Source: Escherichia coli
GTDB taxonomy: Bacteria; Pseudomonadota; Gammaproteobacteria; Enterobacterales; Enterobacteriaceae
Assembly: GCF_003018255.1 (NCBI RefSeq)
Contig: NZ_CP027440.1
Direction: 5' to 3' (one strand)
Length of the DNA: 64,000 nucleotides
The notes beneath the pieces are model-generated. The model had not been told where the DNA came from and made no database searches. It was given only the letters and a program-made list of their open reading frames with translations. Both the position numbers and the translations under genes were made by a program. How positions within the stretch are numbered: position 1 is the stretch's first letter; every line of letters begins with the position of its first letter. Positions 14,574 through 18,339 of this stretch are shown piece after piece.

Positions 14574-15008
14574 AATTAATCATTCCTTAAACAAATGTTT
14601 AGCGGGCGACAAAGTTTACCCGTCAATACATCGAAACCCAACCTTTTTACGTTTTCATTTTTTATAGTAACTGTTTAATTTTCCTGACGCAGATGACACC
14701 ACTCTTACAGCCAAATGAATTTAGCGTTACTGGCGACCCTGGTCTTTACATTAATTATGCAAAATTTATGGATGAGTTGTTGATATGCCATTGAAATTAA
14801 GAAAGCCGTGCAGGCAAGTTTTCCATTTGCCATCTACGCTTAATTTTGAAGGTGTATCACCGGGCACGTTGTTCTCATCGTCGATAAAATGGCATGAGAG
14901 TTGCTGTGTTTTAGCAAGAGACGTCGTTCAGTTTACCTCTTCCGGGAGCCTCTACTATTCATATGAACGGCTCTTAACCTGTGCTAAAAAACGAAAGGAC
15001 GGCATACC

Positions 15009-16943
15009 ATGAATATATTCGATCACTATCGCCAGCGATATGAAGCTGCCAAGGACGAAGAGTTCACACTGCAGGAGTTTCTTACCACTTGTCGGCAAGA
15101 TCGCAGTGCTTATGCCAACGCGGCTGAGCGGCTATTGATGGCTATCGGTGAGCCTGTCATGGTCGATACAGCCCTGGAACCCAGACTTTCTCGACTCTTT
15201 TCTAACCGGGTCATTGCACGTTATCCGGCGTTTGAAGAGTTTTACGGCATGGAAGACGCGATTGAACAGATTGTCTCTTATCTGAAACACGCGGCTCAGG
15301 GGCTGGAAGAGAAGAAACAAATTCTGTATCTGCTGGGGCCTGTGGGTGGGGGTAAATCATCGCTTGCTGAGCGACTGAAATCATTAATGCAGCTCGTACC
15401 GATTTATGTATTGAGCGCCAACGGTGAGCGTAGCCCGGTCAACGATCATCCGTTCTGTCTTTTCAATCCGCAGGAAGATGCGCAGATTCTGGAAAAAGAG
15501 TATGGCATTCCTCGCCGTTATCTCGGCACCATCATGTCGCCGTGGGCGGCAAAACGCCTGCATGAATTTGGTGGCGATATCACTAAGTTCCGGGTAGTGA
15601 AGGTCTGGCCGTCAATTCTGCAACAAATTGCTATCGCCAAAACGGAACCCGGTGATGAGAACAACCAGGACATCTCCGCGCTGGTTGGGAAAGTCGATAT
15701 TCGTAAACTCGAACACTACGCGCAGAATGACCCGGACGCCTACGGCTATTCCGGTGCATTGTGCCGCGCCAACCAGGGGATCATGGAATTCGTTGAGATG
15801 TTTAAAGCACCGATTAAAGTGCTGCATCCCTTGCTAACCGCCACTCAGGAAGGTAACTACAACGGGACGGAAGGTATCTCCGCCCTGCCGTTCAACGGGA
15901 TTATTCTCGCCCACTCGAACGAATCCGAATGGGTCACTTTCCGTAATAACAAAAACAACGAAGCCTTCCTCGATCGTGTTTACATCGTGAAGGTGCCGTA
16001 TTGCTTGCGCATTTCCGAAGAGATCAAAATCTACGAGAAATTGCTTAATCACAGTGAATTGACTCACGCCCCCTGCGCCCCTGGCACGCTGGAAACGCTG
16101 TCACGTTTTTCCATTCTTTCGCGCCTTAAAGAGCCAGAAAACTCCAGCATTTATTCAAAGATGCGGGTTTATGATGGCGAAAGTCTGAAAGACACAGATC
16201 CCAAAGCCAAGTCGTATCAGGAATATCGTGACTACGCCGGTGTCGATGAAGGGATGAACGGTCTGTCGACGCGTTTTGCGTTTAAGATCCTCTCCCGCGT
16301 GTTCAACTTCGATCATGTAGAAGTGGCGGCAAACCCGGTTCATCTGTTCTACGTCCTGGAACAGCAGATCGAGCGCGAGCAGTTCCCGCAAGAACAGGCA
16401 GAACGCTATCTGGAGTTCCTGAAAGGTTATCTGATCCCGAAATATGCCGAGTTTATCGGCAAAGAGATCCAGACGGCCTACCTTGAATCCTATTCCGAAT
16501 ATGGGCAAAACATTTTCGACCGTTATGTTACCTACGCGGATTTCTGGATTCAGGATCAGGAGTATCGCGATCCTGATACCGGGCAGTTGTTTGACCGCGA
16601 GTCTCTTAACGCCGAGCTGGAGAAAATCGAGAAACCGGCGGGGATCAGTAATCCAAAAGATTTCCGCAACGAGATTGTTAACTTCGTACTGCGCGCCAGA
16701 GCGAATAACAGCGGACGCAATCCGAACTGGACCAGCTATGAAAAACTGCGCACGGTTATTGAGAAGAAAATGTTCTCCAATACCGAGGAGCTGTTGCCGG
16801 TTATTTCGTTTAACGCCAAAACGTCAACCGACGAGCAGAAGAAACATGACGACTTTGTCGACCGTATGATGGAAAAAGGCTACACCCGTAAACAGGTGCG
16901 TTTACTGTGCGAATGGTATTTGCGCGTACGTAAATCGTCTTAA
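15009..16943 (+). CDS. yeaG: PrkA-family serine protein kinase YeaG
   Basis: 644-aa ORF with Walker A GPVGGGKSS. Confidence 0.95.
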   Translation: MNIFDHYRQRYEAAKDEEFTLQEFLTTCRQDRSAYANAAERLLMAIGEPVMVDTALEPRLSRLFSNRVIARYPAFEEFYGMEDAIEQIVSYLKHAAQGLEEKKQILYLLGPVGGGKSSLAERLKSLMQLVPIYVLSANGERSPVNDHPFCLFNPQEDAQILEKEYGIPRRYLGTIMSPWAAKRLHEFGGDITKFRVVKVWPSILQQIAIAKTEPGDENNQDISALVGKVDIRKLEHYAQNDPDAYGYSGALCRANQGIMEFVEMFKAPIKVLHPLLTATQEGNYNGTEGISALPFNGIILAHSNESEWVTFRNNKNNEAFLDRVYIVKVPYCLRISEEIKIYEKLLNHSELTHAPCAPGTLETLSRFSILSRLKEPENSSIYSKMRVYDGESLKDTDPKAKSYQEYRDYAGVDEGMNGLSTRFAFKILSRVFNFDHVEVAANPVHLFYVLEQQIEREQFPQEQAERYLEFLKGYLIPKYAEFIGKEIQTAYLESYSEYGQNIFDRYVTYADFWIQDQEYRDPDTGQLFDRESLNAELEKIEKPAGISNPKDFRNEIVNFVLRARANNSGRNPNWTSYEKLRTVIEKKMFSNTEELLPVISFNAKTSTDEQKKHDDFVDRMMEKGYTRKQVRLLCEWYLRVRKSS

Positions 16944-17055
16944 CAACCCTGGCCCGGTACACATGCTACCGGGCCTACAACGACAGCGAACCGTGGGCCA
17001 GAGAAGCGGCAACACAGGCGTAGCATAAAGTTGGCAAATGTAGTACGGGGGGCAT

Positions 17056-18339
17056 ATGACCTGGTTTATTGACCGGCGTCTGAACGGCAAAAACAAAAGC
17101 ATGGTGAATCGCCAGCGTTTTTTACGCCGTTATAAAGCGCAAATTAAACAGTCGATCTCCGAGGCCATTAATAAGCGTTCGGTGACTGACGTCGACAGCG
17201 GCGAGTCCGTATCCATTCCCACGGAAGATATTAGCGAACCGATGTTTCATCAGGGGCGTGGCGGTCTGCGCCACCGCGTGCATCCGGGCAATGACCATTT
17301 CGTCCAGAACGACCGAATTGAACGTCCCCAGGGTGGCGGCGGAGGTTCCGGCAGCGGTCAGGGCCAGGCCAGCCAGGATGGTGAAGGTCAGGATGAATTC
17401 GTCTTTCAGATTTCGAAAGATGAGTATCTTGATCTGCTCTTTGAAGATTTGGCTTTACCGAATCTGAAACAAAACCAACAACGCCAGCTGACCGAATATA
17501 AAACGCATCGGGCGGGTTATACCGCTAACGGCGTTCCGGCCAATATCAGCGTTGTGCGTTCATTGCAGAACTCACTGGCGCGGCGCACAGCCATGACGGC
17601 GGGCAAGCGGCGGGAACTTCATGCGCTGGAAGAGAATTTGGCCATCATCAGCAACAGTGAACCTGCGCAACTGCTGGAAGAGGAACGTCTGCGCAAAGAA
17701 ATTGCAGAATTACGTGCCAAAATTGAACGCGTCCCTTTCATTGACACCTTCGATTTACGTTACAAGAACTACGAAAAACGGCCCGATCCCTCCAGCCAGG
17801 CAGTGATGTTTTGCCTGATGGACGTTTCCGGTTCAATGGATCAGTCCACTAAAGATATGGCTAAACGTTTTTATATTCTGCTGTATCTGTTCCTCAGCAG
17901 AACATATAAGAACGTGGAAGTCGTATACATCCGCCATCATACCCAGGCGAAAGAAGTCGATGAACATGAGTTTTTCTACTCGCAGGAAACAGGCGGCACC
18001 ATTGTTTCCAGCGCCCTGAAACTGATGGATGAGGTAGTGAAAGAGCGTTATAACCCGGCACAGTGGAATATTTACGCAGCCCAAGCATCAGACGGCGATA
18101 ACTGGGCCGATGACTCTCCGCTTTGCCATGAAATTCTGGCGAAAAAAATATTACCCGTTGTTCGTTATTACAGCTATATCGAAATTACACGTCGCGCGCA
18201 TCAGACACTGTGGCGAGAATATGAGCATCTGCAATCTACTTTCGACAACTTTGCGATGCAGCATATCCGCGACCAGGATGATATTTATCCGGTGTTCCGT
18301 GAACTGTTTCATAAACAAAATGCAACAGCTAAAGACTAA
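17056..18339 (+). CDS. yeaH: DUF444 / VWA-like protein YeaH
   Basis: 427-aa ORF with Gly-rich linker ([11 protein letters not shown]), 112 nt downstream of yeaG on the same strand. Confidence 0.92.

Follow-up and report, generated by a model that had tools for sequence, protein, structure and literature searches.

The yeaG–yeaH operon of Escherichia coli as a possible AAA+ motor and vWA adaptor module

The yeaG–yeaH operon of Escherichia coli is analysed here in a 64,000-nt stretch of the assembly GCF_003018255.1 (contig NZ_CP027440.1); this whole stretch is called the window, and all coordinates are positions in it. The operon has been reported to possess two adjacent promoters, one sigma-54 dependent and one sigma-38 dependent (PMC6299236). 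NtrC binds the yeaG promoter, and the peak observed by chromatin immunoprecipitation sequencing (ChIP-seq) converts to approximately 14898–14978 in the window (PMC4066584). The small RNA SdsR was shown to repress yeaG translation by pairing at −31 to −22, a site that was validated by compensatory mutations (PMC10954441). Deletions of yeaG and of yeaH produce one common phenotype (PMC4664914), and damped metabolism with delayed regrowth after starvation has been documented (PMC4664914, PMC10954441, PMC6299236). Mutants of yeaG, yeaH and a third gene, ycgB, which encodes a SpoVR protein, exhibit common fitness profiles in six bacteria (Price et al., 10.1101/072470), and all three genes are NtrC-dependent in Burkholderia (BCAL1663–1665). 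Both the yeaGH locus and its control by sigma-S, by NtrC with sigma-54 and by SdsR are already published. The accounts of its biochemistry conflict: the literature calls YeaG a kinase, a protease or neither, despite the wide conservation of this starvation module.

The locus in the window is closely similar to the described one, with 98.3% DNA identity to E. coli K-12 across 9 kb. The yeaG gene is a member of the PrkA family, its product covering two Pfam profiles completely, i.e., AAA_PrkA (PF08298, 7e-187) and the PrkA C-terminal domain (PF06798, 8.9e-71), and yeaH is a member of the YeaH/YhbH family (DUF444, PF04285, 3e-191, profile positions 2–418 of 418). Of 5426 complete E. coli genomes, 5425 carry the 4.1-kb stretch, annotated as mipA, yeaG, yeaH and cdgI. 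An earlier note, which was written from the letters of this DNA, gave gene identities, lengths and spacings that agree to the base with the open reading frame (ORF) list, the Pfam matches and the K-12 comparison; its judgement that the system is known rather than novel was also correct, as yeaGH is a published, core E. coli operon.

At a probability of about 0.55, the favoured reading makes YeaG primarily an AAA+ motor that cooperates with YeaH, an adaptor bearing a metal ion-dependent adhesion site (MIDAS), and with YcgB as a third component, rather than a conventional protein kinase. This reading is based on the folds and conservation of YeaG and YeaH and on the conflicting activities published for the family; gene linkage, the common mutant phenotypes and the oligomerisation of B. 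anthracis PrkA with ATP also speak for it. It turns the question into a concrete hypothesis that is open to mutational test.

Folds and conserved residues of YeaG and YeaH

YeaG comprises an N-terminal helical region, an AAA+ ATPase that ends near residue 380 and, over residues 381–644, the PrkA C-terminal domain. The Walker A motif named in the earlier note is indeed present as GPVGGGKS at residues 110–117. In an AlphaFold2 (AF2) model, which used 50 sequences at 28–89% identity and has a predicted local distance difference test score (pLDDT) of 90.8, residues 381–644 are all-helical. A Foldseek search against the PDB, using an April 2026 library that did not contain entries 9xip, 9xiq and 9xir, returned AAA+ proteins for all of the top 50 matches (LonB, MCM, BchI, NtrX/PspF, ClpC, LonC and the NorQ–NorD complex), and for the AAA+ domain itself NorQ and CbbQ ranked best, ahead of sigma-54 activators, MCM and BchI. 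Residue conservation was evaluated in the 50 sequences, in which G110, K116, N304, R323, R422, E541 and R553 are invariant, while E263 (49/50) and R372 (47/50) are nearly so. K116, E263, N304, R323 and R372 make up the AAA+ catalytic set; beyond position 380, only R422, E541 and R553 are invariant. YeaG possesses a Walker A motif, a Walker B acidic residue, a sensor 1 Asn, an Arg finger, a sensor 2 Arg and the AAA+ fold.

The three PDB entries that were missing from the Foldseek library (30 chains in all) contain a 692-aa protein titled "Serine protein kinase" that is homologous to YeaG (E 8e-51, residues 77–603); no publication describing them was found in the literature searched.

The designation "Ser kinase", which the earlier note had used for YeaG, holds as the name of the PrkA family and is not supported as an activity, the C-terminal domain showing no kinase fold, kinase profile match or catalytic residues. 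In other words, it is a family name and not an established activity. The corresponding alternative is that YeaG is a genuine Hanks-type Ser/Thr kinase whose C-terminal domain phosphorylates targets in starvation, with the AAA+ domain, YeaH and YcgB regulating or targeting the kinase, and with proposed effects via MetJ, sigma-38 levels and metabolic enzymes. Database annotation as a protein kinase agrees with this, as do two results cited in other papers, namely the weak in vitro phosphorylation of itself and of casein by recombinant YeaG (Tagourti 2008) and the altered modification patterns of metabolic enzymes upon yeaG perturbation (Sultan 2021). In addition, neither the K426A mutant nor the Y382stop truncation complements the yeaG deletion (PMC4664914), showing that the C-terminal domain matters without thereby identifying its chemistry. 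However, Pkinase family profiles gave no match to YeaG even at E ≤ 10, and a PDB sequence search at the same threshold returned no kinase. The all-helical domain in the model does not form a bilobal kinase fold with a beta-rich N-lobe, and it contains no invariant Asp, Lys or Ser in the 50 sequences, the proposed kinase lysine K426 being kept in just 26 of them. The PrkA proteins of B. subtilis (PMC9512850) and B. anthracis (PMC13001217) were moreover found to be without kinase activity, purified B. anthracis PrkA exhibiting negligible kinase and protease activity while oligomerising with ATP (PMC13001217). A Hanks-type kinase is considered unlikely.

B. subtilis PrkA was instead reported to be a protease, on the basis of an ATP-dependent, PMSF (phenylmethylsulfonyl fluoride)-sensitive cleavage of casein (PMC9512850), which leads to the proposal that YeaG is a Lon-like ATP-dependent protease degrading regulatory proteins in starvation. 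Besides the PrkA homologue, the only PDB sequence matches of YeaG are to the Walker A regions of Lon proteins (E 0.0065–0.03, YeaG residues 70–127), and LonB and LonC are among its fold matches. However, the resemblance to Lon is limited to the AAA+ module: neither a Lon protease domain nor its fold was found after residue 380 of the model, and no invariant Ser or Lys is available for the conserved catalytic Ser–Lys dyad. The B. subtilis activity needed 24 h (PMC9512850), and a similar weak protease-like activity of B. anthracis PrkA was lost on further purification, for which the authors suggested a co-purifying E. coli hydrolase (PMC13001217). A protease function is thus judged very improbable.

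In 47 Vibrionales/Alteromonadales/Aeromonadales loci, YeaG retains 82–89% amino-acid identity to the E. coli protein, compared with 64–76% for YeaH and 71–81% for YcgB; such strong conservation is unusual in a protein whose function is still debated. Some longer PrkA homologues in the database (910, 724 and 943–957 aa) match YeaG in two stretches, and may be fusions, partial duplications or mis-called starts.

YeaH begins with a conserved basic N-terminus, followed by a disordered Gly/acidic linker and a helical hairpin of coiled-coil-like character; its vWA domain occupies approximately residues 236–418. The poly-Gly linker described in the earlier note corresponds to a run at residues 92–104, and its vWA-like assignment agrees with Foldseek, in which vWA/MIDAS domains, among them NorD and the MIDAS domain of MDN1, fill the entire top 50. 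The AF2 model has a pLDDT of 72, with residues 1–15, 42–49 and 51–116 below 50, stretches that take in the linker region. The MIDAS motif consists of D256-x-S258-G-S260 together with T315 and D346, and these five residues are invariant even in YeaH homologues at 29–39% identity. The gene adjoining yeaG encodes a vWA protein whose MIDAS is intact, which is the arrangement that characterises MoxR-class pairs.

A further reading is a chelatase-like or cofactor-insertion system, in which YeaG, YeaH and YcgB would follow the pattern of BchI–BchD–BchH or NorQ–NorD. They would supply a target enzyme with a metal or cofactor, or strip it of one, and would not be general protein remodellers. The top fold matches NorQ, CbbQ and BchI are motors of such systems, the invariant MIDAS and Gly/acidic linker of YeaH recall BchD, and the three-gene architecture is conserved. 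However, the operon has no linked gene for a target enzyme, and mutant phenotypes vary between species (10.1101/072470). This possibility, which appears decidedly unlikely, is a sub-case of the motor–adaptor reading and not a true alternative to it.

Gene linkage and viral cassettes

Synteny was surveyed in 80 gamma-proteobacterial loci, including 31 from Enterobacterales and the 47 from Vibrionales/Alteromonadales/Aeromonadales. In the co-occurrence analysis that the earlier note had proposed, yeaH directly follows yeaG in 79 of the 80 loci, with a truncated contig as the exception; the spacer between the two genes is as short as 19 nt and as long as 232 nt, depending on the locus. The third gene behaves differently in the two groups: ycgB lies immediately 3′ of yeaH in 45 of the 47 loci outside Enterobacterales and in none of the 31 Enterobacterales loci. 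In K-12 it is 630 kb distant, and among Enterobacterales it was found nearby only in Brenneria, 1.7 kb downstream of yeaH. The three-gene operon was split in Enterobacterales, and the Brenneria arrangement is possibly an intermediate. The divergent mipA–yeaG arrangement is retained in most Enterobacterales loci, and also in four Vibrio/Salinivibrio loci (mipA at 28–32% identity).

The same set of genes is found in viral sequences. A scan of IMG/VR seeded with a 7-sequence PrkA alignment revealed PrkA relatives on at least 285 viral contigs. In 81 viral loci (80 from IMG/VR plus that of the phage RsoM2USA), a colinear prkA–yeaH–ycgB trio is present 62 times, most of the others being cut by contig ends. 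Neighbouring genes at the viral loci match phage protein families (endolysin, tape measure), and several diverse PrkA representatives likewise occur in phage-like contexts with genes for primase-helicase, DNA polymerase A, ERF and SSB. A PrkA homologue is also present in 17 records of cultured phages, one of them the jumbo phage RsoM2USA of Ralstonia, which carries the trio in the bacterial order. PrkA falls in phrog_22605, labelled "unknown function", and the viral trio, a little-noted reservoir of the three-gene cassette, is barely discussed in the open literature searched.

A separate case is MN688132.1 (Enterobacter phage LAU1, 30.8 kb), in which positions 1–1932 contain a YeaG gene 97.8% identical to that of the window. 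This gene looks like host DNA, whether through a prophage boundary, transduction or assembly.

Promoters, leader and flanking features

The earlier note had suspected complex regulation of the long AT-rich region shared divergently by mipA and yeaG, and had proposed scanning it for sigma-S and sigma-54/NtrC motifs. The AT-rich character was confirmed (39.8% GC in the intergenic region and 35.7% in its upstream 277 bp, vs. 49.7% in the whole window), and the complexity is well founded in the published promoters, NtrC binding and SdsR repression, for which sequence elements can be located here; the scans recovered a sigma-S −10 element and a sigma-54 element, and no canonical NtrC site. Coordinates of these and the other features are collected in Table 1.

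Table 1. Features of the yeaG–yeaH locus and its surroundings (window positions).
Feature	Position	Strand	Basis or remark
mipA (MltA-interacting protein)	13827–14573	−	ORF; Pfam MipA 3.4e-54; named mipA in K-12
mipA/yeaG intergenic regulatory region, 435 bp	14574–15008		divergent, AT-rich
Block A, GATGAGTTGTTGATATGCCATTGAAA	14771–14796	+	11-bp-phased direct repeat (GATRWGTYATT twice)
Block B, containing the sigma-S (RpoS) promoter	14812–14846	+	extended −10 TCTACGCTTAA at 14833–14843
Sigma-54 (RpoN) promoter TGGCATGAGAGTTGCT	14890–14905	+	−24 GG at 14891–14892; −12 GC at 14903–14904
yeaG 5′ untranslated region (UTR) from the sigma-54 start	14916–15008	+	predicted start 14916
SdsR pairing site CCTGTGCTAA	14978–14987	+	published −31 to −22 (PMC10954441)
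Shine–Dalgarno AAGGA	14995–14999	+	
yeaG, 644 aa	15009–16943	+	ORF; Pfam AAA_PrkA and PrkA C-terminal domain
YeaG Walker A coding segment	15336–15359		
yeaG–yeaH spacer, 112 nt	16944–17055		between the two genes
Stem-loop GGCCCGGTA-CACATGC-TACCGGGCC	16951–16975	+	just 3′ of the yeaG stop; no U tract
yeaH, 427 aa	17056–18339	+	ORF; Pfam DUF444
YeaH Gly run coding segment	17329–17367		residues 92–104
YeaH MIDAS motif coding segment	17821–17835		D256-x-S258-G-S260
Terminator-like hairpin and T tract, closing the operon	18344–18382	+	found by terminator scan; stem of 11 pairs, 6 of them GC; tail TTTTAGTTCA

Conservation of the promoter region was assessed in an alignment of 12 Enterobacteriaceae genera, and motifs were counted over the 31 Enterobacterales and 47 Vibrionales/Alteromonadales/Aeromonadales loci. 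The alignment shows sharply bounded conserved footprints amid divergent sequence. The intergenic region of the window is 99% identical to that of K-12, and its five single-nucleotide polymorphisms (SNPs) all lie in 14679–14751, upstream of the conserved elements. Conservation among the 31 Enterobacterales is layered, with the sigma-54 element present in 24, the SdsR site and Shine–Dalgarno sequence in 19, the sigma-S −10 element in 13, and block A and the leader core in 12 each.

The sigma-54 element deviates from TGGCAC-N5-TTGCW at one position. A single match of this quality is at chance level in the window, since 46 of 100 shuffles reach four matches, and the promoter is therefore called on cross-species conservation: TGGCAY-N5-TTGCT is kept in the 24 species just mentioned, beginning 94–129 nt 5′ of the ATG in 22 of them and farther away in Rahnella and Brenneria, and is absent from all 47 loci outside Enterobacterales. 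Transcription from it would start at about 14916, i.e., −93 from the AUG, which coincides with the 5′ end of the UTR construct of McQuail et al. (PMC10954441).

The sigma-S promoter is recognised by its extended −10 element, of which 10 of 11 positions are invariant in the 12 genera. The element matches perfectly the sigma-S extended −10 consensus KCTAYRCTTAA, which was reportedly derived by Weber et al. in 2005. The start would be expected at about 14847–14849. The part of block B upstream of the promoter (14812–14832) is itself almost fully invariant in the 12 genera, and no factor is assigned to it.

Block A, with 23 of 26 positions invariant across the 12 genera and diverging flanks, was found in none of the 47 other gamma-proteobacterial loci, and its centre lies at about −133 relative to the predicted sigma-54 start. 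An 11-bp-phased direct repeat is a layout typical of winged-helix response regulators. Block A is probably a transcription-factor site, with no factor assigned; visually, it is similar to ArcA or PhoB boxes. GATGA(C/A) motifs recur near 14705–14735.

The canonical NtrC site TGCACC-N5-GGTGCA was not found in 14574–15008 at three or fewer mismatches; blocks A and B are candidates only for the NtrC enhancer sites. Throughout the window, 31 matches to the NtrC consensus were found vs. 32 expected by chance. One of them, TGCACCACCGTAATGCA at 13755–13771 in the 5′ end of yeaE, has two mismatches and precedes the sigma-54 promoter of yeaG by approximately 1.1 kb; it is probably coincidental, because the window-wide count is at chance. 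Two other candidates were rejected. The sequence TCTACTATT (14950–14958), which could be taken as a second −10 element, becomes CCATTAC in other genera and is regarded as leader sequence, and a 75-aa ORF at 14785–15012 starts 5′ of both predicted transcription starts and crosses alignment indels, so it is not considered coding.

The leader is nearly invariant in the 12 genera over 14935–15008 (about 75 nt to the ATG), and its GTGCT...ACGAAAGGA motif occurs in 19 of the 31 Enterobacterales. The SdsR site is identical to that of K-12, and RNAduplex pairs it with the UUUUAGCGCACGG stretch of K-12 SdsR at −15.1 kcal/mol. The full-length SdsR–leader duplex has a modest advantage over shuffles, 2.4% of which score as well; the meaningful part is the published specific site. 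The leader by itself folds no better than shuffles (z = 0.0), and its alignment fold shows almost no covariation (covariation term 0.17). In the 112-nt spacer, which as a whole also folds no better than shuffles (z = −0.8), the stem-loop following the yeaG stop is possibly a transcript-stabilising or attenuating hairpin.

A generic sigma-70 and terminator scan gave counts at chance level, leaving only the terminator 3′ of yeaH as positionally meaningful; the next gene, cdgI, starts at 18486. A permissive Rfam scan of 13500–19000 matched no family, leader and spacer included. Elsewhere in the window, the only Rfam matches above the gathering score are the cspA thermoregulator (55468–55928, − strand, 139.7 bits) and the small RNA sroD (36336–36421, − strand, 115.2 bits). 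On the other side of mipA, yeaE (methylglyoxal reductase, 12884–13782, − strand) exhibits a 1-bp deletion relative to K-12 near 13265, in a G6A3 run, which splits the gene into ORFs 13168–13782 and 12884–13243; a pseudogene and a sequencing error in the homopolymer are the two explanations.

Proposed mechanism and comparison with known systems

The motor–adaptor reading can be joined with the regulatory elements into one proposed course of events. Transcription begins at the sigma-S promoter or, 69 bp downstream, at the NtrC-activated sigma-54 promoter, so that general stress and nitrogen starvation can each turn on yeaGH. Both transcripts carry the conserved leader, in which Hfq-dependent SdsR pairs just 5′ of the ribosome-binding site and lowers translation late in starvation, and a terminator is located after yeaH. 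YeaG would then act as an ATP-driven AAA+ motor with a helical C-terminal domain attached, and YeaH as a vWA adaptor whose MIDAS metal ion binds a partner or substrate at one of its acidic residues, the basic N-terminus and flexible Gly/acidic linker coupling YeaH to the ring. With YcgB, whose gene lies elsewhere in the E. coli genome, the two would make up a tripartite remodelling module through which metabolism is damped and regrowth delayed in starvation.

A further proposal, held tentatively and more doubtful than the motor–adaptor reading itself, is that YeaG has neither kinase nor protease function and is the motor of a hitherto unrecognised class of AAA+/vWA-MIDAS/SpoVR machine, which enforces metabolic quiescence and has been repeatedly acquired by phages as a host-takeover module.

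Several observations weigh against the motor–adaptor reading. Among them are the weak in vitro phosphorylation by recombinant YeaG, as cited from Tagourti 2008, and the failure of K426A to complement (PMC4664914). PrkA was placed in AAA+ clade III (classical) in PMC13001217, which disagrees with the top structural matches obtained here, and the AAA_5 (MoxR) profile reaches E 0.0071 with YeaG, below the cutoff; the resemblance to MoxR proteins is one of fold only, suggesting a functional analogy and not family membership. Physical coupling of YeaG to YeaH, the remodelling activity and its substrate are presumed parts of the scheme, as are the positions of both transcription starts, and the canonical NtrC site is missing from the intergenic region.

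The locus agrees with K-12 yeaGH (b1783–b1784) in gene content, order, lengths and spacings, and from 14752 to the ATG the two promoter and leader regions are identical; beyond the five intergenic SNPs, no difference of functional note was found. The prkA–yhbH–spoVR operons of Shewanella, Vibrio, Alteromonas and Burkholderia (BCAL1663–1665) share the first two genes in the same order and the common mutant fitness profiles, with NtrC dependence found in Burkholderia as well. They differ in that the third gene, ycgB, has been relocated in Enterobacterales, and in that only Enterobacterales or Enterobacteriaceae have the sigma-54, sigma-S and SdsR elements. Lon proteases are similar to YeaG in AAA+ fold and, weakly, in Walker A sequence, whereas YeaG has no protease domain or conserved Ser–Lys dyad.

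In the MoxR-type pairs NorQ–NorD, CbbQ–CbbO and RavA–ViaA, as well as in BchI–BchD, an AAA+ motor gene likewise lies beside one for a vWA protein whose MIDAS is intact. The best structural matches of YeaG include NorQ and CbbQ, and the matches of YeaH include NorD. In contrast to these pairs, YeaG has an additional region at its N-terminus and a helical C-terminal domain of 260 residues, falls below threshold with the MoxR/AAA_5 hidden Markov models, and is accompanied by a third partner, SpoVR, that has no counterpart there. The proposed AAA+/vWA-MIDAS/SpoVR machine would be related in logic to the MoxR and chelatase systems.

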